DNA of 50,858 nt from a virus (Duplodnaviria; Caudoviricetes), in the IMG/VR virus record IMGVR_UViG_3300045960_000023, positions 1-50,858 of that record; one strand, given 5' to 3'. Positions 18,619 to 49,005 of this stretch are shown here, in pieces. Position 1 is the first letter of the stretch. Each line of letters starts with the position of its first letter. The notes beneath the pieces were generated by a model. The model searched no databases. It was not told the DNA's origin and worked only from the letters and a program-made list of their open reading frames with translations. The position numbers and the translations under genes are program-made.

Positions 18619-19959
18619 ATGGCTATCGAAATGTTAACTGTCCAACGCTCCCAGATAAGTGTGGGAGCTCGCTTTCGTGAAGACTACGGTGACCTCTCTG
18701 ACCTCGCCAATAGCATGAAATCAGAAGGTATCATCCAACCACTGGCTGTGAAGGCAGACCCTCAAAATTGTGGATTTATCCTTCTAGCTGGCGGCCGGAG
18801 AATGAAGGCTGCTGAGAAGGCAGGCATTTCTGAAATTCCCGTCCGAGTGTACCCTGCAGACATCAGCGATACCCAGATGCTTCTCATCGAACTGTGCGAG
18901 AACGTCTACCGCAAGGATATGACTTGGCTCGAGCAGACCCGCCTCCGCAAGAAGATCCATGAGCTGGGCATTGCAACTGAGGGACGTAAAGTGAGCACTA
19001 GCCCCGATGCCAAGGGCTGGTCGCAACAGAAGACAGCTGATATGACTGGCGTGAACCAGCGCATGATATCTGCTGAGCTCCAGTTAGCCGAAGCAGTTGA
19101 GGCGTTCCCTATCTTGCAACAGGCTAAGACGAGAGACGAAGCGCTCAAGATGATGAAGAAGATGAGCGAAACTATGATCCGTGGAGAGCTGGCCAAGCGC
19201 ATACAGGATAAGACTGCAAGCACTCCCATGGAGAAGCAGCTAACTGATCTGTCCAATAGGTATATCGTGGCTGACTTCTTTGATCTGGCGAAACAGTTAC
19301 CCGATAAGAGCATTGACTTCTGTGAGATCGATCCCCCTTATGCCATCGACCTGATGGGGCTGAAGAAGAAGCAGGACATCTCTCAGTACAACGAAGATAC
19401 ATACAATGAGGTGGATCAACAGGACTACCTCCACTTCATCGACCGCACTGTGCGTGAGTGCTACCGTGTCATGACTGACTCGTCGTGGCTTGTGATGTGG
19501 TTCGCTATCGAGCCTTGGATCGAAGATATGTACATGATCCTCAGCAAGGCTGGCTTCTCAACACGTCGCCTCTGTGGTATGTGGATTAAGGAGACGGGCC
19601 AGACTATGAACCCAGCTATGCACCTGGCCAACCAGTACGAACCCTTCTTCTACGCACGCAAGGGCAACGCTACGCTGATGAAACAGGGGAGAGGCAATGT
19701 CTTTCAGTACAAAGCTGTCCCGCCCACAAAGAAGATCCATCCTACAGAGCGGCCTATCGAGCTCATCCAAGAAGTTATCTCTACATTCTGTTGGGAAGGA
19801 AGTCGCATCCTTGTCCCGTTTCTCGGTAGTGGCAACACTCTGTTGGCGGCGAGCAACCTTGGGCTCACAGCCTTTGGTAGTGATCTTAGTCAGGAGTACA
19901 AAGACTCCTACGTCATGAGAGTACACACTGGGAAACCTGGAGAGTACAAATCCTATTAA
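18619..19959 (+). CDS. ParB-N-terminal domain fused to N6/N4 DNA methyltransferase (beta class)
   Basis: GIIQPL...LLAGGRR...EN..RKD (ParB), an HTH, then DPPY, HPTERP and PFLGSGNT. Confidence 0.88.
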   Translation: MAIEMLTVQRSQISVGARFREDYGDLSDLANSMKSEGIIQPLAVKADPQNCGFILLAGGRRMKAAEKAGISEIPVRVYPADISDTQMLLIELCENVYRKDMTWLEQTRLRKKIHELGIATEGRKVSTSPDAKGWSQQKTADMTGVNQRMISAELQLAEAVEAFPILQQAKTRDEALKMMKKMSETMIRGELAKRIQDKTASTPMEKQLTDLSNRYIVADFFDLAKQLPDKSIDFCEIDPPYAIDLMGLKKKQDISQYNEDTYNEVDQQDYLHFIDRTVRECYRVMTDSSWLVMWFAIEPWIEDMYMILSKAGFSTRRLCGMWIKETGQTMNPAMHLANQYEPFFYARKGNATLMKQGRGNVFQYKAVPPTKKIHPTERPIELIQEVISTFCWEGSRILVPFLGSGNTLLAASNLGLTAFGSDLSQEYKDSYVMRVHTGKPGEYKSY

Positions 19960-23801: not shown

Positions 23802-24280
23802 ACATCAAGGATATGACTAAAGAGAACATGGCTGCCATCCTCGAGAGCCTGATGAAGGACGGTAAGATCATGGAGGTGGACATCATAGCCACCATGAACC
23901 CTGCTCCCTCGGAAGAGATGAAGGGCATCTGTGATCTGATCCACGGCTTCCTGTGCACCAAGGCTCACGGGGATAAGCAAGGTGAGTGTGACTACTACAT
24001 TGAAGACGCGCTCTTCGAAGGGTGGTCGCTGCCTACACATAGACAGTGGCTACAAGAGATAGGAAAGCTAATGAAGACCTACGACATAGCCTCCATTAGC
24101 GATCTTACAAATGCACTCCGCGCAGTCGCAAGTCTTGTTCGAGAGCTTAGCGAGGTTCGTAGCGTAAGTGTCAATCGCTATCGTCTTGTAGCCACTGTTG
24201 TGCATGGCTATCTAACAAACGAGTTGAAAAAGATCACTGCGCAGGCTTCGGGAACTCCTCCATTATCTCTCCCCGTCTGA
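23798..24280 (+). CDS. Hypothetical protein
   Basis: GGAGG RBS, GTGA overlap; H..LC...H....CDYY.E; last gene of the early arm. Confidence 0.7.
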   Translation: MNIKDMTKENMAAILESLMKDGKIMEVDIIATMNPAPSEEMKGICDLIHGFLCTKAHGDKQGECDYYIEDALFEGWSLPTHRQWLQEIGKLMKTYDIASISDLTNALRAVASLVRELSEVRSVSVNRYRLVATVVHGYLTNELKKITAQASGTPPLSLPV

Positions 24281-27200
24281 GCATCTCTGTCTGTATAATC
24301 CTCCGCGCCTCAGGAGAGAGCATACGCATCTTCATCTCTCTCCTGATGGTGGAGGATCTAATCCCAAGTGTGAACATCTCATCCCAGACGTGAGGTGGCA
24401 CAACCTCTCCCGCGTTAAGCGCATCGACAACAGCATCTGTAACGTAGGCCTTGCGCTTGCTCAGCTGTGCAGCGTGCTGCTTCTCCCTACTCTCAAACTG
24501 CTTAATGCGAGCAGCTTCGAGGGGCTCAGCTCCCATCACCACCTTCGCAATGTCTACATTCTCCAACCGATAGATCTCTCTTCCACGCTGGTCCTTGATG
24601 ATGTAGCCATTCTGTCCAGGTGTAGCCATCTTATCAATGAGCAGCTTGGGCCACGTCTTCATCAACGGACTCACCTGCTCTGCGATGGAGGTGCTGAACT
24701 CCACACCTTCCTTGAATGTGCGAGGAGCCATCTTCTCTCCTGCCATGTAGCTCTTGAGTACATTGTTATAGGTCTTCACAATATCGCTGATGAAGGGCCC
24801 AGCCCAGTCGGACATAGACTGTGGCATCTGTAAGGCAGCTGGCCCAGTAACATCAATGCCCAGCATACCACCAACTCCACGAGATGCGCGGGGATAGTTC
24901 TTATCCATCCACTGCTCTATCTCTCCCCACCATCCGAACATCGCTAAGACAGGGGCAGCCTTGAGCATGGCTACAATAGCGCGAGGCCCACCCAGTGCAG
25001 CCTGCACCATCAAGAAGCGTCCCGCCTGGGGAGCAGACAAGTGAGCCATGAACTCCAGCTGGTTAATCATGTATGTCTTGAACTGGCCCATCGTCTTACC
25101 AACAGGCGACCTCAGGATCGAGGGCAGGTTGGCTATGTTGTAGGTGGCCTGAGAGAATACGTTCTGTTGGAACGCATAGATACGAGCCTCCGCTTCTCCC
25201 ATCCCAAGGCCTCCGTTCTTCACACTATCACGGGCCATCAGGTACGGTGCAGCTAGCCCAATAGAACGGTTCGGAATCTCAGGCCTCTCGAACATACCCA
25301 TAGGCTGTGTCCACCAGGGCAAACCCTTGAACACTTCATGCCTAGGCTTCAGCGACTCTCCCTCATGGGCAAACGTCTGGCCCATGATAGGTTCCATCTC
25401 TTTGATGAACTGCTTGCCTTCCTTAGAGGCGAGGAACTTATAGCCGGCAGAGAAATACTTAGTCCCATTCTGCGTCCACACGTTCCCCTGACCACCAAGA
25501 TAGTTGAACGCTGCAGCGATGGGCCTATATGCCAGCTTCAATATACCCTCAGCAGCACGCGCATAGGCAGCACCCTTAGTGGCCGTCATGCTGGCTGTCT
25601 CCATTCGCTCAATGCCAGTCTCTCGACCAATCCATCTGATCAGATCATCAGCTGCTTTGTCCTGCCAATGGTAGCGACCCTTAGTATCCTCAATGAGGGT
25701 GCGCAGAAACTCCTGCGTGTTCGGCTGGCCTGCGTAGTCCCTATTAATGATACCTCTGGCCTCAGCAATCAGAGGATCAAGAGCTGTCTTCCTCCTCATG
25801 GTGTATGCGTAGTTGAACAGCACACTGGAGACATCCTCTTCACCCGCCAGTGTATCGAAGCGTCTCTTCTCAAACGCACTGAACTTGTAAGTAGGCTTGA
25901 TGATGAAGAGGCCACGCACTGCACGCTTCGCAGCGAGTGTCGACTCACCCTTCGCAATCCCTTCATTGATCTCCTTGAGGATCTTATCATTGCTATCAGA
26001 GAGACGCTTGAGGACAGAGAAGTACTGTCCCTGTCCTATCCCCTGAGGCATATCCTTCATGAAGTTAGTGTCCATGTACAACTCAGCACTCGGGTCAGCT
26101 TCCTTGATGCGCTGCGCTTTACGAATAGCATCAGCCTTGCTAACACCAACTGCCACTACCTTCCCACCCACTTCCTTATCTCTCAGCACAATAGAGCCAC
26201 GCTCGAAGTGGGTCATATAGTCGGGGATGTACTTGCTCTCCAATGCCCTAAAATCATCTACGAGGCCACGCAGAACATGGGCATCCTTCTCATCAAACTT
26301 AGAGAAGATAGTCTCTGGACTATACTTCTTCTCAATAACCTGCATCAGAGCCTCATACTCCTCAGGCTTAAGGTGGCTCTTGAAGTCAGCCTTAGTGGTG
26401 GCAATCTTCTCATCCCACATCATATCTAACCAGTCTCTCAACTGTCCAGCTGCTGTGGCAACCTTCTCACTCGAAGCCTTGGCCTTGTTCTCAACTACCT
26501 TCCCCAACTCTAGGCGCCCTGCTTTGTCCAGCTGGCCGAAGATAGCATTGAGCACATCCCTATCCCCACCAGCTGCAGCAAACTTATGCACTGAGCTAAG
26601 GTCAGCCATGTTCCATCTGGTCACGAAGTCGAAGGCCTTCCCACCGATCTTCTGTGCGATACGCATAGGCTGGCGCACCTCACTCTCCCACACTCTTATC
26701 GCGTCAGGATCTGGCAACCTATCATGCAGCCACTCCTTCCCATCCTTCCCAAGCAACGCCTCCTTCAACTTGTCGGAGCCGAGAGTGGTCTTCCCATCTC
26801 GAGTGCGGCGCCACAGCTTATACAACGCCTCAGTGGCCTGCTGCCCACCCATGAAGTCGAACGTCACACCTGATCCATAGGGGCTAGGCCCATCAGCAAC
26901 AGGCTTCTGCAACACCACTACATCCTCATATCCAACTGTGTTCCTTCGCTTGACCTCATGTGCAGCTGATGTGGCGAAGCCTTCCTCCACCTTATACTGC
27001 TTGACAAACTTAAAGCCCTCAGCCTCAAGTGCTTTGGTGTGCCAGTCAGTGGCCTTCATAACCCCACCTTCAACCGCAACAGTGGAGTTGGCCTTGGGTA
27101 TGCGATCTGACTTAAACCTATCCTTCATGTTCAGTACGAAGTAACCACCAGGTTCCACGACCCTGAAGGCTTCCTTGTACGCTTCCTTATGCAACGCCTC

Positions 27201-30200
27201 ATACTCAGGGCCCCAGATCATACCACCTGTGTTGCCCTCCTTAAGCTCACCACCTGCAAATGCCTGGTAGCTCTCCGTGCGGCTAGCGCCAGTCCGTGCC
27301 ATCTCGTTGCCATAAGTGGGTGACGTCATGATAGCACCAACCGACTCATTGGGTAGATCGATCTTCCTCGCATCACCTATGATCGAGACGTCAACTCCAT
27401 TCGTCTTGTGCAGATCAGTAGTGCGCACACCACCCCAAGCTGGCTCTAGCTCATTGGCGATGACCTTCCCATCATAGCCATACTCTTTGATCTTCCCAAT
27501 ACGCCCAGTGCCACCGAATATATCTAGCACTGTCTTCACCTGCAGGCCAGATGCAAGGTCACCCATCAGCTTCTGGATACCTTGTGGATATACAGCAGGA
27601 TGCAACCTGCCACGCTTAACCATATCCCTCAGACCCTCGTAGGTCTGCTGAAGGCCGAGGCTATCAAGCGTATACTCTCGCACAGGCTGCGCATGCTTAG
27701 GGTCGAACCAGACATATGTCTCAGCGCCTCCGCCCTGAGAGACGAACTTGTTCCCAGGGATACCAGCTTCGTCTCGGAGGAACTCTGACGTTGCCTTACG
27801 AGCACCAGTGGCATGGGTATCTCCGTTGCCGAAGATCTCCCACAGCTTATACTGAACGTCGTGGCCAGTCATCTTTCCCTTAGGTTCCATTATCCTAACA
27901 ACACGCTCAGTTCCTATGCCGCTAGGCGCAACCCTTACATTACTTATCCCATACTGTCGTGATAGCCCATTGGCTAGGTTCTGAGTAAGAATCTGCCCAG
28001 CCTCTGCGATGATCTTACCCTGAGTGTGGGGGCTCTCTATGTCATATGCTAATGGCAATCCTAAGCCGTCATTGTCAACAGTTACATCTGCGCCAGCTTT
28101 AGCCGTCTCTTCACTCTTAAGCACATCCCTTAGTTGTGCAACTCTACTATCTGTCTTAAATAGAAAGTCAGGACCTTGATCTTCTACAAACCGCATATAG
28201 CTTTCGATAGTCCTACGCAAAGTGATCCTCTCATATGTACTCATTCCTTTGTAGCCAGAGGCTTTCCAAAGAGGATCTGTTACATCTGCTTTGTCCCTAA
28301 GTATATCAAGAAGCTCAGTCTCTTGTTTCAGTCTATTATGTATGAACTGCTTATACTCATCGCGAGTGATAAGGCCATCTATATACTGGCTATTTCGTTT
28401 CCTAAGCTCAGGCACCAGATCAGTAGGCACATCAACAAGATCTGCTAACCAGTCCTTATCACCACCCTTGGTCTCTTTCTTAGCGATCTTGTCAAGCGCG
28501 CCCACGATAGCTGTCCGCTGCTCAGGCTTCAGCTCTGTATCGAGGTTAAGCAACTTCTCCTCAACCTCAGGCAGGTGGCGGGTCTCGTAGACGACAGCCT
28601 TATACTTAGCGCCAACCGGCTCTTTGATCTTAACCCCATTCCCTTCATACATCATCTTAGAGAACTCATTAAGGGCATCTAGCTTCGCTTGATCCTTAGC
28701 GATCTCTTTCTTATAGGCCTCCTCCCTATGGCGATTCTCTAGTCTCATAGCCTCTAGGCTCGCAGGTGTTGCTCGGCCTTCTTGTACTGCTTGCTCTCTT
28801 CCACGCTCTAGCTTCCTACCTATGTCTAAGGAGTGCTTCATACCTTCTATCTGACGTTCCAGGTATGCACCAAACTCAACGGCCTTATTAGTGAGCACAC
28901 CTTCTATCGACTTAGGGTCTTTCATCTTGAGAAGAGTGGCAACATCCCCTATGGTATAACCATAGATCTGTGTCAAGTCGCGATTGCTAAGGGGTCGATC
29001 ACCTATCATGATAGTTCTCTCCCCACTCACACCCTCACGCTCATTCGCCTTCCTCGCTAACCTCTCAGCGTAGTTACTCTCAGCAATCTCCACCTTCTTC
29101 GTGGTATAGATACCCCACCCACGATAGGCAGCACCCTCACCAGTACCTGCATACCGCAGATCATAACCAATCTCTCCACGCTCATTAGGCATGAAGAAGA
29201 CCTTGGTTCCATGATAAGTGAGAATCCCATTCTCAGTGAGGTTAGTGTGCCACGCCTTGGACTGCTCAAACAGGTCACCAATGTTCCCCTTGATAGCAGG
29301 CCAAGCTGGGCCAGCGATCTCCTCCATCCTCTTCTTAAACGCAGGGAACTCTTTTGGCCCCTCAAGGAACAAGCCACGACCTACGAGGGAGAGGGTATCC
29401 TTATTAATATCTCGCTTAAAGATGTCCCGAGCCATCTCATACATCTGCTGCAGGCCCATGAAGTCTAGCGTGAAGCCACCCCCCTCACCAGGCAGGTCAG
29501 CTCCCATGCCTTCACTTTTCAGAAGCGCCTCGAAGTCCTCAGCCGTCTTCAGTTCCACAGTGGGCTTGGTCTCAGTAGGCACATTGGGAATATCCTCTAC
29601 GACAGCGGGCTCCTTCAGATCGAGCGTTGTGTCACTAAGCCACTCCTCAATCTCCTTATCCTCTTCAGGTGTGCGCCTCTGTCTCCGAGTGGGCTCAGGC
29701 TCAGCTGGTGCCGATGCCTCAGCGTCCCGCTTAGCGAGCTTCTGCTCAATCACCTTAAGCTGAATAAGCTCCAGGCGAGAGGGTGCAAGGTCACCATCCA
29801 GCTCCAGAGCCTTAGCATCATTAAGAGTCTGCTCTGCTTTCTCGAGCCCCTTGAGACCCTTGTCAGCTGGCTTCCTCTTAGTGAGCTCTGCAATAGCATC
29901 AGCAGCATCCTTGTTCAACAACTCAGCATGCTTAGTGTGCACCTGCTCAGGGGTCATGGCAGAGATCTCTTCAACCTTCATGCCACTCTTCTTAAGCTTA
30001 TCTATCTTCGCTTCGAAGGCTCTCTTCTTATCCACAAGGATACGAGCCTGAATGTCGAGCTGAGGTGTAGTCTCAACTGGGGCGGAGCGCTGCTCAGGGG
30101 TGAGGCCTTGTCCACGCTTGGCTATCTCTGCGTCGAGTGCTTCCTCAACCAGCTCCCTATTGAGCGCATCACGCTTATCCTCAGGCTTCATCTTCTTGAG

Positions 30201-31793
30201 GTCTTCTACATCATGCCCTCTATTAGCCAGCTCACGTCTCACAGCAAGGTCAGTCATGGGCTTCTTAACGATCCCATCCACTATGCCCTGAACCTCAGCG
30301 CGTGTGGCACCTGTGTGGGCCAGGTCTATAGCAATATCGTCAGGCACATACTTCATGCCAAACTTCTTAGAGGGGTCAATAGGCTGCTCAGCCTTCGGAG
30401 CCTTGGCCGCCTTGGGCACAACAGCTGCAGGTGCAGGCTCAACGGGGATACCTGGAACCTGTGCACCTTCAATGGGCGTAGCAACAGGCGCAGGTGGCTT
30501 CGTCTGGTCAATTCCCTTAGCCTTCGCAGCTTCAACGGCCGCCTTAATGTCAGGGTTCTTGTTGAGGAAACTTTCTGGAATAGATCCAAACACACCCTGC
30601 CCAGCCTGGGCCGCTTCTGATAGCTTAGACACACGCCCCATGAGGAGTTCCTTCTCCTTTAGAGGCGTAGCAGGGTCTCTCATCTTCGCAACAAGCTCAG
30701 CGTGGAGCGCCTGCATCTCTGCCACCCTACTAGGGTTAGCGATGCCAAAGCGCATAGCATCTGCTGTACCTTTAAAATCAGGTATGGGTTCGGCACCTTT
30801 CACCAATGATTGGTCTGAGGGTGCGGGTTTCCCCGCTTCGACCACAGGCGTCTCGGTGTCCCAGCTTGCACGCCCACCAACCTTTCCAACAGGCCCAGGA
30901 GGCGGCTCACCACCAGGGATCGTTCCTTCATAGGTCTGTCCGAAGGGCTGATTCTCCCTCAGCCACTGAGCATCCTTATACTCCACATCAGTGGCCGCTT
31001 GTGCATCTCGAACCGTCTCGTACTCTTTGAGAGCATTGGCTAGGTCAGCATCTTCTAGGATTTTCTCTCTGACTCCTTCCTTCGCCAACGCAGCGTCAAT
31101 GTCAGCATTATTGCGGAATCTGGATGCGGCCTTTCCAGTCGCCATGCTGAGACCTTTAGCCAGAACCTTGAAGGCCAAGCTAAAACCAGCTGCTCCCAGA
31201 GCAAACCCTCCGGCTTCTTCAAGTGACTTCGCCCCCCTTTCCATCAGGGTAGCTCCAGGTGTAGCACCTGCAGCTCCAACCACTGCTCCAGACAAAGCTC
31301 CATGGCCTGCGACTCTAGCGGTACCTTCAATGAGGCCAGCACCTGCACGGGGCGCTACCATTGTAGCTATCTTCTCCGCTAAGGGAACTCCAACCCTACC
31401 AAGCCCCTTGAGTGCGGCTGTACCTACTCCACCACCAGCTGCATAGAGAGGCATCTGCGGGGCGAACTCAGCAAGCCCAAATGCCAGCTGGCCCGCCATA
31501 GATGTGGGCGGTGCCTCATGTACAGCTTGATAGTCCTTGAAACTCTTCGCCTCAGCCTCCCTCGCTCTGGAGAGCTTCTCTATCCCCTCCATACCAAGCA
31601 GGTTGGCGATGTTACCTGTCGTCTCGAATAGCTTCGCACCACCAGTCTGCAGGGCACCAGTCAGGTACGTGCCGAAGCTCGGCTCCTCTTTCGGTTTAGA
31701 CTGCTGTTGAATAAAGGCAGCGATCTCATCATCGCTCTTATCAGCCAGAGCATCTGGCACGTCGTAGACGTTATCGTACAGTTGTACTTTCAT
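24234..31793 (-). CDS. Large polyvalent internal virion/ejection protein with ART-like and DNA methyltransferase domains (2519 aa)
   Basis: Last structural gene. Gly/Ala-rich hydrophobic N-terminus; YHGT...GTGEGAAYRGWGIY...AGIPG...YVWFDP (ART-PolyVal-like); VLDIFGGTG...TSPTY...PGGYFVLNMKD (MTase). Confidence 0.8.
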   Translation of the reverse strand: MKVQLYDNVYDVPDALADKSDDEIAAFIQQQSKPKEEPSFGTYLTGALQTGGAKLFETTGNIANLLGMEGIEKLSRAREAEAKSFKDYQAVHEAPPTSMAGQLAFGLAEFAPQMPLYAAGGGVGTAALKGLGRVGVPLAEKIATMVAPRAGAGLIEGTARVAGHGALSGAVVGAAGATPGATLMERGAKSLEEAGGFALGAAGFSLAFKVLAKGLSMATGKAASRFRNNADIDAALAKEGVREKILEDADLANALKEYETVRDAQAATDVEYKDAQWLRENQPFGQTYEGTIPGGEPPPGPVGKVGGRASWDTETPVVEAGKPAPSDQSLVKGAEPIPDFKGTADAMRFGIANPSRVAEMQALHAELVAKMRDPATPLKEKELLMGRVSKLSEAAQAGQGVFGSIPESFLNKNPDIKAAVEAAKAKGIDQTKPPAPVATPIEGAQVPGIPVEPAPAAVVPKAAKAPKAEQPIDPSKKFGMKYVPDDIAIDLAHTGATRAEVQGIVDGIVKKPMTDLAVRRELANRGHDVEDLKKMKPEDKRDALNRELVEEALDAEIAKRGQGLTPEQRSAPVETTPQLDIQARILVDKKRAFEAKIDKLKKSGMKVEEISAMTPEQVHTKHAELLNKDAADAIAELTKRKPADKGLKGLEKAEQTLNDAKALELDGDLAPSRLELIQLKVIEQKLAKRDAEASAPAEPEPTRRQRRTPEEDKEIEEWLSDTTLDLKEPAVVEDIPNVPTETKPTVELKTAEDFEALLKSEGMGADLPGEGGGFTLDFMGLQQMYEMARDIFKRDINKDTLSLVGRGLFLEGPKEFPAFKKRMEEIAGPAWPAIKGNIGDLFEQSKAWHTNLTENGILTYHGTKVFFMPNERGEIGYDLRYAGTGEGAAYRGWGIYTTKKVEIAESNYAERLARKANEREGVSGERTIMIGDRPLSNRDLTQIYGYTIGDVATLLKMKDPKSIEGVLTNKAVEFGAYLERQIEGMKHSLDIGRKLERGREQAVQEGRATPASLEAMRLENRHREEAYKKEIAKDQAKLDALNEFSKMMYEGNGVKIKEPVGAKYKAVVYETRHLPEVEEKLLNLDTELKPEQRTAIVGALDKIAKKETKGGDKDWLADLVDVPTDLVPELRKRNSQYIDGLITRDEYKQFIHNRLKQETELLDILRDKADVTDPLWKASGYKGMSTYERITLRRTIESYMRFVEDQGPDFLFKTDSRVAQLRDVLKSEETAKAGADVTVDNDGLGLPLAYDIESPHTQGKIIAEAGQILTQNLANGLSRQYGISNVRVAPSGIGTERVVRIMEPKGKMTGHDVQYKLWEIFGNGDTHATGARKATSEFLRDEAGIPGNKFVSQGGGAETYVWFDPKHAQPVREYTLDSLGLQQTYEGLRDMVKRGRLHPAVYPQGIQKLMGDLASGLQVKTVLDIFGGTGRIGKIKEYGYDGKVIANELEPAWGGVRTTDLHKTNGVDVSIIGDARKIDLPNESVGAIMTSPTYGNEMARTGASRTESYQAFAGGELKEGNTGGMIWGPEYEALHKEAYKEAFRVVEPGGYFVLNMKDRFKSDRIPKANSTVAVEGGVMKATDWHTKALEAEGFKFVKQYKVEEGFATSAAHEVKRRNTVGYEDVVVLQKPVADGPSPYGSGVTFDFMGGQQATEALYKLWRRTRDGKTTLGSDKLKEALLGKDGKEWLHDRLPDPDAIRVWESEVRQPMRIAQKIGGKAFDFVTRWNMADLSSVHKFAAAGGDRDVLNAIFGQLDKAGRLELGKVVENKAKASSEKVATAAGQLRDWLDMMWDEKIATTKADFKSHLKPEEYEALMQVIEKKYSPETIFSKFDEKDAHVLRGLVDDFRALESKYIPDYMTHFERGSIVLRDKEVGGKVVAVGVSKADAIRKAQRIKEADPSAELYMDTNFMKDMPQGIGQGQYFSVLKRLSDSNDKILKEINEGIAKGESTLAAKRAVRGLFIIKPTYKFSAFEKRRFDTLAGEEDVSSVLFNYAYTMRRKTALDPLIAEARGIINRDYAGQPNTQEFLRTLIEDTKGRYHWQDKAADDLIRWIGRETGIERMETASMTATKGAAYARAAEGILKLAYRPIAAAFNYLGGQGNVWTQNGTKYFSAGYKFLASKEGKQFIKEMEPIMGQTFAHEGESLKPRHEVFKGLPWWTQPMGMFERPEIPNRSIGLAAPYLMARDSVKNGGLGMGEAEARIYAFQQNVFSQATYNIANLPSILRSPVGKTMGQFKTYMINQLEFMAHLSAPQAGRFLMVQAALGGPRAIVAMLKAAPVLAMFGWWGEIEQWMDKNYPRASRGVGGMLGIDVTGPAALQMPQSMSDWAGPFISDIVKTYNNVLKSYMAGEKMAPRTFKEGVEFSTSIAEQVSPLMKTWPKLLIDKMATPGQNGYIIKDQRGREIYRLENVDIAKVVMGAEPLEAARIKQFESREKQHAAQLSKRKAYVTDAVVDALNAGEVVPPHVWDEMFTLGIRSSTIRREMKMRMLSPEARRIIQTEMLRRGEIMEEFPKPAQ

Positions 31794-46947: not shown

Positions 46948-47532
46948 TTAGTAAACGTTGATAGGAACACGGAACCGGTACGTGAGATCGATCTCTTTCG
47001 CACCGTTCAGCGTGCCAGCGGGGAGATAGGTGCCGTACGTCTTGTTGAACGTACCAGCGTCCGCATCTCCATCGAACGTCCTGTTCAGCATCTCCTCGTA
47101 CACAGCGCCGGGGCCAGCAGGCAGGCCGAGCTTGTTGCCGACGCCGATAGCAATGGTGTCATCAGTGGTCGTAACCGTCCCACTCACCAGGGCCCACACA
47201 GCGGCCGTGACTTTGGAGAAGGCTCTAACCCCACTCATCACGGTAGTGCCGGTAATAGCGATGACATCAGAGACTGCCTCGCCGTTCTGATCGAGGCCAT
47301 AGATGGTAACCGTGCCAGCGGTGATCGACGCGTTAGCATCGACCAGATAGCACACCATGTTTCTCGGGTAGTCAGGCTCAGCCAACGCGATAGTCAGCGC
47401 GCCAGCGGTCAGGCCACTAATCGCAGCAGCGGTGACAATCGCACAGGCTCCACTATTAGCAGCCTGCACGATCGGCTCGCTGTAGGTCAGGTTATTGCAG
47501 AGGGTGATCCACCCTTTCATGCGCTCAGACAT
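46948..47532 (-). CDS. Putative capsid decoration protein
   Basis: Ala/Thr/Gly-rich beta protein directly upstream of the capsid gene; AAGGAGG RBS. Confidence 0.55.
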   Translation of the reverse strand: MSERMKGWITLCNNLTYSEPIVQAANSGACAIVTAAAISGLTAGALTIALAEPDYPRNMVCYLVDANASITAGTVTIYGLDQNGEAVSDVIAITGTTVMSGVRAFSKVTAAVWALVSGTVTTTDDTIAIGVGNKLGLPAGPGAVYEEMLNRTFDGDADAGTFNKTYGTYLPAGTLNGAKEIDLTYRFRVPINVY

Positions 47533-47564: not shown

Positions 47565-48020
47565 TTATTTGTTACCTATTTTGGTTGCCGGAGTTCCCGC
47601 CCAAATCTCGTTCTCTGGTATATCCTTCGTCACCACAGAACCCGCTCCCACCAAAGCACCACGTCCGATCAGGACACCACACACAACTGTTACCCCTGCG
47701 CCTAGCGCTGCTCCTTTCTCGACAACAGTCCCTTTCCACGTTTCTCGTGGAGAAGGAGGAAACTTGTCGTTCGTAAAGGTGCATCGAGGTCCTATCCATG
47801 CGTCGTCCTTTATCGTCACGCCCTCCGGTATGAAGCACATAGCCCCTATCCGGACATTATCGCCTACCCAGACCTTATGTCCGATCTCCGAAAATCTTCC
47901 CACGGATACACTCTTTCCAAGATGAGCCGTCGGATACACGTTGCTTGGGTACCATACTTTCGATCCAGTTCTCCTTGTCTCGAAGTATCTCTTTATGCGA
48001 GTGAACATGGTGGTGAGCAT
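47565..48020 (-). CDS. Hexapeptide-repeat (left-handed beta-helix) acetyltransferase
   Basis: VGDNVRIG...IGPRCTFTND...VGAGSVVTKDIP...WAGTPA; resembles sugar N-acetyltransferases. Confidence 0.88.
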   Translation of the reverse strand: MLTTMFTRIKRYFETRRTGSKVWYPSNVYPTAHLGKSVSVGRFSEIGHKVWVGDNVRIGAMCFIPEGVTIKDDAWIGPRCTFTNDKFPPSPRETWKGTVVEKGAALGAGVTVVCGVLIGRGALVGAGSVVTKDIPENEIWAGTPATKIGNK

Positions 48021-49005
48021 TGGGCTTCCTTTCACTTAGCAGAAGATCATACAGCTCTTTCATCTGCTTGGCTGTTTCGTCTATGTCGGGTATAGGGTCT
48101 TTCACCCTTGGCTCCACGTCTCCTTTCAGAATCTGTGCCAGCTCATCAGCCAACCTACGCTGATCACCTTCGCTGACCCAGAAGTCTGCATACGGATTGC
48201 CTTCATATGAAATAGTTTTGCACTTGCAGCTTCCTGCCTCAAGGCTCATTCTATTGAAGTCGCCATAGCGCACGAGGCCGCAGTAGTAGTCAACACTGTT
48301 CAGCGCATTTCGCAGGTTCACATGATCGAACCTCGTTGCGCTGATATAGCTCGAGAAAGAAGCCCCATTCCTATTCACTAGTGGGAAGAACCACCTATGC
48401 ACGTCCTGAGGCAGGTTGGTGGCATGGAGACGAACCCCATCCACTTCCTTCTGCACCCAGGGCCATGCGATGAACAGGTCGAGAGGCCACTTGATTGAGT
48501 AGTTGTTTTCACAGGTAAGCACGCTAGGGTTGCCAACATACTTACCCTGACTCGGCACCTTGTCATTCCAGAAGAGCTTATCAATGCCCAGAGGTATACA
48601 CTTCACAATAGCCCTCTTATCACAGAGGGACTTCCAGATCTCATGGTGTCTGGGCCAGAAAGTGACCACCGCATCGCTATGTTGGAGCCAATACTGGATC
48701 AGCATCCAAGCATCACCATGCCCATAGCCACCCTTCTTCCCATCTTCCACGGCCGTCTGGAACACAACCTCAGGCGTCGCGTGAGCTACCCAAACCACAG
48801 TGACGTTCGGACGCTGCATCCAAACCTCAGCAGGAATAAAGGTATGACCCACATGGACGTCGGCGAAGATAGCGTCTTGGTAGTCCTTAGTGTCAGTCCA
48901 CGCAAGACGAGAGTCAAGGCCCATCCGCTTCTCTGCTTCGCAGATACTCTCGGCGGCCCTGTGCATCCCGCTAGTGTTTCCCCATGTCCAGTGAACGATC
49001 TTCAA
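47875..49005 (-). CDS. Glycosyltransferase (GT-B, GT4-like)
   Basis: MKIVH...SGMHR...HAT...DAVV...IPLGID...K...FNRMSLEAGSC. Confidence 0.7.
   Translation of the reverse strand: MKIVHWTWGNTSGMHRAAESICEAEKRMGLDSRLAWTDTKDYQDAIFADVHVGHTFIPAEVWMQRPNVTVVWVAHATPEVVFQTAVEDGKKGGYGHGDAWMLIQYWLQHSDAVVTFWPRHHEIWKSLCDKRAIVKCIPLGIDKLFWNDKVPSQGKYVGNPSVLTCENNYSIKWPLDLFIAWPWVQKEVDGVRLHATNLPQDVHRWFFPLVNRNGASFSSYISATRFDHVNLRNALNSVDYYCGLVRYGDFNRMSLEAGSCKCKTISYEGNPYADFWVSEGDQRRLADELAQILKGDVEPRVKDPIPDIDETAKQMKELYDLLLSERKPNAHHHVHSHKEILRDKENWIESMVPKQRVSDGSSWKECIRGKIFGDRT

Follow-up and report, generated by a model that had tools for sequence, protein, structure and literature searches.

A short reiterated junction box at payload-module boundaries in giant phage proteins

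The giant open reading frame and its repeated motif

The DNA considered here is a 50,858-base window (the whole stretch that was analysed, positions 1 to 50,858 of the IMG/VR virus record IMGVR_UViG_3300045960_000023), whose gene content is phage-like: scans against Pfam and PHROGs recognize a terminase, an SU10-like portal, a major capsid protein and adaptor, a DNA polymerase, a primase, and a ParB-methyltransferase (ParB-MTase). The structural arm of the window, which holds the SU10-like major capsid protein, portal, and adaptor, has at its end a giant open reading frame (ORF), P0001, encoding a protein of 2519 amino acids (aa). An earlier sequence-only reading had noticed a 12-residue motif that occurs three times in this protein, as TLDFMGLQQMYE (aa 775), TLDSLGLQQTYE (aa 1375), and TFDFMGGQQATE (aa 1644), and the translations match that reading exactly. 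The similarity among the copies runs ~9 residues past the 12-mer (MARDIFKRD, GLRDMVKRG, and ALYKLWRRT, respectively), so that the repeated unit comprises ~21 residues. This unit, termed the junction box, has the consensus T-[LFM]-D-[FS]-[MLV]-G-x-Q-Q-x-[YTWF]-E, followed by a basic amphipathic tail. The ORF and its boxes are given below, with the scores of a hidden Markov model (HMM) of the box built from 13 copies.

24234..31793, minus strand: giant ORF P0001, 2519 aa, last gene of the structural (minus-strand) arm
29409..29471, minus strand: junction box 1, aa 775-795 (TLDFMGLQQMYE followed by MARDIFKRD), HMM 54 bits
27609..27671, minus strand: junction box 2, aa 1375-1395 (TLDSLGLQQTYE followed by GLRDMVKRG), HMM 48 bits
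26802..26864, minus strand: junction box 3, aa 1644-1664 (TFDFMGGQQATE followed by ALYKLWRRT), HMM 49 bits

One account of the copies, which are short and belong to a repeated unit of ~21 residues, would regard them as neutral relics, left by an internal duplication or produced by chance resemblance, with no present function. Shuffle tests stand against the chance component of this account. P0001 contains nine internal pairs of 12-mers with at least 8 identities, every one of them derived from the motif, whereas among 30 shuffled versions of the protein a pair with 8 identities arose in two and a pair with 9 in none. At the DNA level, a degenerate pattern of the motif finds two sites in the window vs none in 100 shuffles (copy 2 is missed by the pattern because its Ser codon is AGC), and a six-frame scan of the window with the HMM recovers the three copies at 48-54 bits, the next best match scoring 2.9 bits. 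A chance origin of the motif is excluded.

Each copy is followed by an amphipathic, basic helix, as the sequence-only reading had described: the hydrophobic moment of the helices is 0.45-0.50, corresponding to the 93rd-97th percentile of all 18-mers in P0001, and helices are predicted there by AlphaFold. Lys and Arg together account for 4-5 of 14 tail residues, and the tail of copy 1 also carries three acidic residues. No family in Pfam, PHROGs, or NCBIfam covers the boxes, PT-VENN, Rhs, and other pre-toxin families included. The earlier statement that the motif has not been described likewise agrees with a limited literature search, in which the box strings gave irrelevant matches only.

Payload modules and the placement of the boxes

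The regions around and between the boxes comprise the following features, of which payload module 1 had been called 'ART-like' (ADP-ribosyltransferase-like) in the sequence-only reading. Model confidence is expressed as the predicted local distance difference test (pLDDT).

29493..29543, minus strand: acidic pre-junction stretch, aa 751-767 (AEDFEALLKSEGMGADL), kept upstream of the first box in relatives
29232..29462, minus strand: three-helix unit, aa 778-854, opening with box 1 as its first helix; helices at aa 778-792, 798-811, and 816-854, pLDDT 58-83
27702..29231, minus strand: payload module 1, aa 855-1364, with the strings YHGT, GWGIYTT, and ETYVWFD recognized by eye
26901..27602, minus strand: payload module 2, a DNA methyltransferase, aa ~1398-1631, with motif I FGGTG and motif IV SPTY
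26865..26900, minus strand: G/P/S-rich linker before box 3, aa 1632-1643 (VADGPSPYGSGV)
24237..26801, minus strand: conserved, mostly helical C-terminal region, aa 1665-2519, common to P0002 (90%), P0008, P0010, P0012, P0015, P0016, and P0017

The MTase is the one secure enzymatic domain of P0001. Taken as an isolated segment, it scores 26.9 bits against PF01555, just above the gathering cut-off of 26.7 bits (21.3 bits when the whole protein is scanned), and its model, with pLDDT 68-94, is matched by Foldseek to class I S-adenosylmethionine (SAM) methyltransferases. Two stand-alone homologues were found, P0019 (219 aa) and P0020 (240 aa). They start at IHPCPYP and HPAKYT, respectively, corresponding to LHPAVYP (aa 1397-1403) directly past the tail of copy 2, and end at ILILRKV and ILVFKKETMNI (the latter extending four residues beyond the aligned block), corresponding to VVVLQKP, whose last residue is aa 1631, with 12 residues left to copy 3. 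The limits of these homologues, the PF01555 match, and the predicted fold agree in placing the MTase wholly between copies 2 and 3, where the sequence-only reading had located it. In the relative P0004, ~25 additional residues lie between the motif helix and the MTase.

Payload module 1 had been placed between copies 1 and 2 and called ART-like. Its position stands, but the ART assignment found no support in P0001: for aa 775-1374, Pfam returned only noise at E<=1 for ART or any other family, and PDB sequences and the Atlas returned nothing. A Foldseek search with the low-confidence model of module 1 gave no match at E<=1e-3, and aa 855-1364 matched no fold in the searches. In the homologue P0008, a sub-threshold match to ART-PolyVal PF18760 (E=0.0056, 17.9 vs 31.2 bits) covers the stretch aligned with YHGT…GWGIYTT and serves as a lead only for an ART identity of the module.

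The boxes are placed relative to folds by AlphaFold2 models of aa 745-1400 (9-row alignment, mean pLDDT 53) and aa 1360-2519 (15-row alignment, mean pLDDT 59), in which each copy is predicted to sit at the exit of a low-confidence linker and at the start of a helix. At box 1, pLDDT is <50 over aa 757-776 and the helix begins at F778; at box 2, aa 1360-1401 stay below pLDDT 50 throughout, a helix being predicted at aa 1382-1393; at box 3, pLDDT is <50 over aa 1634-1649, and a helix is predicted at aa 1647-1665 with pLDDT ~36-63. G, P, S, and A abound in the linkers ahead of copies 1 and 3, the fraction of these residues reaching 0.45 in the 20 residues upstream of copy 3. By eye, an acidic stretch of the form AEDWE..LL..EGMP.EL precedes the first box in P0002, P0004, P0008, P0012, P0016, L022, and L034. 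The three-helix unit (consensus L...GR....EG...F..F...MKE.LG..W...KG) is also found in P0002, P0008, P0009, P0012, P0013, P0016, P0017, P0018, L019, L022, and L034, and fold and feature searches with it gave nothing usable. The sequence-only reading had named motifs inside predicted folded domains as an observation that would overturn it. The motifs are not inside the enzyme folds; copy 1, however, forms the helix at the edge of a small helical bundle-like unit. A complex prediction with the three 45-aa junction segments as three chains scored 0.02 against a mark of 0.34, and speaks neither for nor against binding.

Strong conservation of a short linear motif with polar invariants, lying in low-confidence linkers at module boundaries, would also be expected of a processing site, at which a protease would cleave each box, perhaps behind the invariant Glu, and free the payload enzymes in a layout resembling viral polyproteins or MARTX toxins. 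Such a protease might be encoded by the phage or the host or, in relatives, be an embedded zincin. Position 12 is Glu in all three window copies and, among the relatives scanned with the HMM, in all copies except that of P0018 (Gln). Glu-specific cleavage is known from phage head proteases, T4 gp21 cutting L/I-x-E and phiKZ gp175 cutting S/A/G-x-E; however, the P3 residues of the boxes (M, T, and A) break the T4 rule, and only copy 3 (ATE) fits that of phiKZ. Zincin-like HExxH motifs are present in P0010, P0012, P0015, P0018, and P0022 among 14 motif-bearing proteins (the HExxH of P0021 is in its C-terminal region and is not zincin-like in look), and autoproteolytic domain release has been proposed for polyvalent proteins in the main text of their description (PMC5512222). 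On the other side, HExxH was not found in P0001, P0002, P0008, P0016, or P0017, and neither a peptidase family in P0001 (Pfam, PHROGs, and NCBIfam) nor a prohead protease in 30 other ORFs of the phage (PHROGs and/or Pfam, in a set that omits some small ORFs) was detected; the available part of the SU10 paper makes no mention of a protease (PMC9509320). In addition, the motif is predicted to be helical, copy 1 lies within the folded three-helix unit, and an MTase tethered at the channel exit would have no need of release. For the protease site suggested in the sequence-only reading, no protease was thus found in P0001 or the scanned ORFs of the phage; processing is regarded as a serious but unlikely alternative, and P0001 is probably not cut at the boxes. 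Ribosome skipping of the 2A type, self-cleavage by an Asp-Pro bond or an N-O acyl shift, a peptide that pauses translation, and a clamp-binding motif were also considered and set aside, in part for want of a fit to the conserved residues.

Module exchange among relatives

Relatives of P0001 differ in both the number of boxes and the modules associated with them. An HMM scan of 22 proteins found three copies in P0001 and P0002, two in P0004, P0016, and P0017, one in nine proteins, and none in eight (four type-B relatives, the two stand-alone MTases, and two false positives). A variable copy number with different domains between copies had been named in the sequence-only reading as the outcome of an HMM search over large phage proteins that would support it, and both were found, with 1-3 copies and differing modules between them. 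The common plan consists of an N-terminal region of ~700-900 aa, the acidic stretch, the first box, the payloads, the last box, and a C-terminal region of ~870 aa. The modules at or between boxes are module 1 in P0001, P0002, P0008, and P0017, the MTase in P0001 and P0004, an unknown ~150-aa module in P0002, zincin-like HExxH modules in P0010, P0012, P0015, P0018, and P0022, and a stub of module 1 in P0016; P0018 carries an InPase domain (PF18823, E=3.8e-51), and P0010 has an LPD23 match below threshold.

Two pairs of relatives show where the modules are exchanged. P0001 and P0002 are 90% identical over 877 aa from aa 1643/1772, one residue before copy 3, and also resemble each other as far as copy 2 extends (…REYTLDSLG.QQ.YE), after which they become unrelated, P0001 continuing with the MTase and P0002 with its unknown ~150-aa module. 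For L034 and P0004, identity is 59% across a 700-aa stretch that opens 10-15 residues ahead of the last box, and 33% upstream, where the likeness ends at the first box; their interiors hold the three-helix unit and ~150 unassigned residues in L034 and the MTase in P0004. By comparison of these sequences, the two pairs represent independent swaps with breakpoints at the motif, and in both a conserved box is directly upstream of a module that differs between relatives. The location of the copies outside the enzyme folds, the variable copy number of 1-3, the differing modules, and the swap breakpoints together support the proposal, made in the sequence-only reading, that the motif marks cassette boundaries, and the junction box very probably delimits exchangeable cassettes.

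P0016 (1760 aa) retains only the first strand of module 1 (VLSYHGTKLSFMP), followed by the last box, and it looks like a natural payload-less form made by deletion.

Selection on the peptide rather than the DNA

Breakpoints at the boxes would also be expected of a DNA-level recombination anchor, in which the sequence is kept as homology for cassette swaps and the peptide itself has no role; a recombination anchor was among the possibilities listed in the sequence-only reading. This account is in keeping with the break of homology at the boxes in two independent pairs of relatives and with the Sak4-like annealing protein encoded by the phage, and conserved motifs reportedly mediate adhesin swaps in T-even phages (a finding ascribed to Tetart et al. 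1998). However, the anchor fits the breakpoints and not the conservation of the DNA. Across eight distinct motif DNAs, identity is 85% at codon positions 1+2 and 49% at position 3, in loci that were found via a pattern that demands the peptide. In pairwise comparison of the window copies, the longest identical run is 11 nucleotides (nt), and copy 2 differs in its codons for Ser and Leu. The peptide is kept between proteins less than 30% identical, where DNA homology is gone: the box is identical at 10-11 of 12 positions to the boxes of P0009, P0010, and P0018 despite 17-27% overall identity, and at the protein level its conservation is far above that of its surroundings. The position-3 divergence, the 11-nt maximum run, and the conservation in distant relatives therefore point to selection on the peptide and not on the DNA, and an anchor without a role for the peptide appears very improbable. 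Likewise, a neutral relic is hardly credible, as the box is kept in distant relatives while its flanks diverge, and synonymous divergence combined with amino-acid conservation amounts to selection on the peptide.

Distribution of the box

The junction box is rare. Searched with a profile built on seven copies (three of the window, four of viral contigs), 1.84 billion representative proteins yielded 11 matches at E<=1e-3, nine of which are giant proteins of 1378-2519 aa, that of the window included. The other two, P0011 (TPR-like repeats) and P0014 (a tandem repeat), were rejected as false, since only the Q-rich half of the profile matched them, many times. A 45-residue profile, in a search limited to proteins of 80-2000 aa, gave three matches. 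With the DNA pattern, seven stretches were found in viral contigs, all seven within ORF segments of 703-2582 aa. In metagenome contigs, some of which are identical to contigs of the viral set, the pattern found 29 stretches, comprising 11 at >=25 bits in ORF segments of 843-2369 aa, three at ~12 bits in short ORFs, and 15 without a score. In genomes of cellular species it found 21 stretches, one of them plausible (L044, 35.7 bits, on a contig of a metagenome-assembled genome (MAG)). The further motif-bearing ORFs L013, L022, L025, L034, and L044 matched no informative family in Pfam. Taken together, the profile and DNA-pattern surveys indicate a motif that is rare and essentially confined to giant phage proteins.

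The ORF of L044 (L044:47-1318, minus strand), from a Nitrospirota MAG contig, ends 85 residues past the motif and near the contig end; a fragment, a frameshift, and a phage contig placed in the bin are all conceivable for this locus.

This distribution bears on a third function considered for the motif, that of a packaging, loading, or chaperone signal, in which the box would be a capsid-targeting or chaperone-binding peptide used for procapsid entry or for refolding after ejection. An amphipathic helix after a flexible linker would suit such a signal, and its hydrophobic core with basic flanks recalls a chaperone-binding pattern; the internal proteins of T4 carry a short N-terminal capsid-targeting helix. 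However, all nine real matches are in proteins of at least 1378 aa, the box is internal in every full protein, at least 297 aa from the N-terminus, and no small cargo protein is among the matches, nor does any other ORF of the window carry the box in the six-frame HMM scan. Moreover, there would be no need for a general signal to recur at every module boundary. The loading signal is accordingly weakened as an explanation and is considered improbable.

A second junction sequence in a sister group

Four relatives, P0003, P0005, P0006, and P0007, share an MTase that is 51-57% identical and have different terminal regions. In place of the junction box, and at the same places, each of these proteins has 2-3 copies of the motif L-[YFT]-[SG]-G-[IL]-[DP]-[PVI] with a helix behind it; LYSGIDP, LTSGIDP, and TYSNLDP are examples. 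The motif flanks the MTase and precedes the C-terminal region, and MAFFT aligns these sister motifs under copies 2 and 3.

Desulfofustis phage LS06-2018-MD01 (L060, OP947158.1) is syntenic with the window, its order of a major head protein, several genes, a giant protein, and a convergent primase, DNA polymerase, and ParB-like genes being the same. Its giant protein of 1577 aa (L060:7105-11838), which is counted with the sister group, contains 'TYSNLDPTLIGKL' ahead of the region homologous to the C-terminal parts of the relatives, and no payload was identifiable in it by eye. By gene order, the window phage and L060 seem to belong to one phage group with SU10-like heads, and the junction principle may be wider than one box sequence.

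The phage and its neighbouring genes

P0001 is presumed to be an ejection or polyvalent virion protein from the position of its gene, by analogy with the SU10 ejection proteins gp20-24 as far as these are described in the available part of the report (PMC9509320). The C-terminal region (aa 1665-2519) would then be its channel or ejection part. In NCBIfam, NF032893 (tail-700, 'PLxRFG') matches aa 2167-2251 of P0001 weakly (27.2 bits) and P0012 at 35.7 bits, the cut-off of 100 not being reached in either, and denotes at most a distant relationship for P0001. The match at aa 2167-2251 may reflect a distant tie among giant podovirus proteins, as the name 'PLxRFG / tail-700' is also borne, according to the part of the report available, by a 495-kDa protein of Lastavirus podophages (PMC9505181).

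Searches of cultured phages with the giant protein (megablast and tblastn) returned as the sole match the MTase region in two Vibrio phages (four records), and the C-terminal part alone gave a single match at E=0.1; viral contigs queried with the C-terminal region of P0001 yielded no relative. In Vibrio phage eugene 12A10 (L008:1492-2128), the annotation divides the MTase homologue into two overlapping hypothetical coding sequences (1492-1785 and 1703-2128), which suggests a frameshift or a split gene.

Further genes of the window deserve mention. The ORF at 18619-19959 (plus strand) carries a fusion of a ParB-like nuclease with a DNA methyltransferase (phrog_67, 8.8e-37; phrog_12047, 8.8e-21); the phage accordingly has a second MTase, expressed from the replication arm, beside that of the virion protein. 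A candidate scaffold protein is located at 46948-47532. The ORFs at 47565-48035 (minus strand) and 47875-49005 (minus strand) match a hexapeptide-repeat acyltransferase family (PF00132, E=7.5e-17) and, weakly, a glycosyltransferase PHROG, respectively; they sit between the portal and major capsid genes, an unusual site, and as listed overlap by ~160 nt.

Proposed role of the junction box

The explanation tentatively favoured overall is that of a reiterated ~21-residue junction box that opens each payload module of an SU10-like podovirus giant protein. Within this explanation, it seems possible, though with slightly less assurance, that the box serves as a docking or connector helix that is not cleaved. 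As a protein-level connector, the box would be an N-capped amphipathic docking helix packing on a common kind of partner, which for copy 1 is predicted to be the next two helices of the three-helix unit. Each payload would thereby stay an autonomous bead on the ejection-protein scaffold, and the modules could fold, unfold, and pass the tail channel independently. Since the same connector would open every cassette, recombination between any two boxes would yield an in-frame functional chimera, which would explain why breakpoints occur at boxes; recombination at the shared box would then be a by-product of its connector role.

Several observations weigh against such a connector. Near-invariant polar residues such as the T, D, Q, Q, and E of the box characterize recognition or processing sites more than packing helices, and the zincin-like HExxH modules of several relatives could process the protein. 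The predicted helices of copies 2 and 3 are of low confidence (pLDDT 26-63) in models from shallow alignments of 9 and 15 rows, and the partners of the helices are only putative. In the sister group, a different sequence (L-Y-S-G-I-D-P) takes the same positions, so that sequence-specific partners would have to differ between the groups. The box is also not obligatory at every junction, since P0012, P0021, and P0022 lack it before the C-terminal region, and the left end of the deletion in P0016 falls within module 1 and not at a box. Finally, no cultured relative of P0001 turned up by sequence in the cultured-phage searches.

In a broader conception that is considered unlikely as a whole, the box would be a reiterated recognition site, and the ejection protein a plug-and-play rack of anti-defence enzymes that enter the cell as one injected chain and, through the boxes, are freed or held in place at the DNA entry channel, with box-flanked payloads exchangeable between phages and the L-Y-S-G-I-D-P motif doing the same job in the sister group. 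Such a protein would be a phage counterpart of MARTX or polymorphic-toxin modularity, having a junction code of its own that had not been described before.

Should the boxes prove to be functional connectors or processing sites, they would provide a simple sequence handle for finding the payload zone of giant phage ejection or polyvalent proteins, for excising unknown payload modules, as candidate anti-defence enzymes, at natural boundaries, and for understanding payload exchange among phages. The MTase and several modules without a recognized family are among the payloads located via boxes so far. The finding concerns a small group, as yet uncultured, in which the role of the box is a proposal, and it raises the question of whether multi-enzyme ejection proteins are delivered as one tethered chain or cut into free enzymes.

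Comparison with known systems

Polyvalent proteins, as described by Iyer et al. in 2017, are giant phage proteins that string together unrelated enzyme modules and are presumably delivered with the DNA; in the main text of that description, embedded peptidases are proposed to release domains by autoproteolysis, and one kinase system is proposed to have recombinational cassettes (PMC5512222). P0001 may belong to this class, in which one large protein combines two or more unrelated effector or enzymatic domains: the MTase is one such domain, module 1 would be a second, and the gene context fits, virion delivery being presumed. Polyvalent signature domains occur in the homologues only, as the InPase of P0018, five zincin-like HExxH motifs, the sub-threshold ART-PolyVal match of P0008, and LPD23 of P0010. 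No inter-module junction motifs are described in the main text of the 2017 paper, its supplementary alignments aside (PMC5512222). Unlike in polyvalent proteins, payloads of the P0001 type lie in the middle of the scaffold of a conserved ejection protein, between reiterated boxes.

The podovirus ejection proteins include gp14-16 of T7. P0001 shares with gp20-24 of SU10, in the portion of the report available, a gene located after the tail genes and helical, partly hydrophobic terminal regions (PMC9509320). Unlike P0001, known ejection proteins have not been described with exchangeable enzyme cassettes between repeated boxes.

Anti-restriction enzymes packaged in the virion are exemplified by P1 DarB (an MTase-helicase) and T4 Alt (an ADP-ribosyltransferase), which, like the presumed payloads of P0001, are particle-borne enzymes that modify DNA or host proteins and act at entry; they are, however, separate proteins with their own packaging routes, whereas the enzymes of P0001 would be modules of one ejection protein. 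The sites of the T4 gp21 and phiKZ gp175 head proteases and capsid-targeting peptides are similar to the box in that it ends in an invariant Glu within a predicted virion protein, but a head protease was not detected in the 30 scanned ORFs, and the box is internal and repeated and not N-terminal.

Polymorphic toxins possess demarcation motifs, such as VENN of CdiA, PxxxxDPxGL of Rhs, and the pre-toxin domains, that precede the variable module. The junction box is similar as a short conserved motif right before a module, with the downstream module differing among close relatives; it differs in having no sequence or Pfam relation to these motifs, in being repeated within one protein, and in the absence of an immunity gene and the presence of MTase-like payloads. 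MARTX toxins are effector arrays that are cut in the inter-effector linkers by an internal cysteine protease, and their effector set varies among strains. P0001 is comparable in having several effector modules and flexible linkers in one polypeptide whose delivery is presumed, but it is a phage ejection protein and not a secreted toxin, and an internal protease domain was not found in it (no peptidase family and no HExxH). The nearest functional analogues, as far as such parallels reach, would be the demarcation motifs of polymorphic toxins and the MARTX arrays, neither of which is related in sequence; demarcation by a motif is a known kind of arrangement, and for the box sequence itself the limited literature search gave no description.

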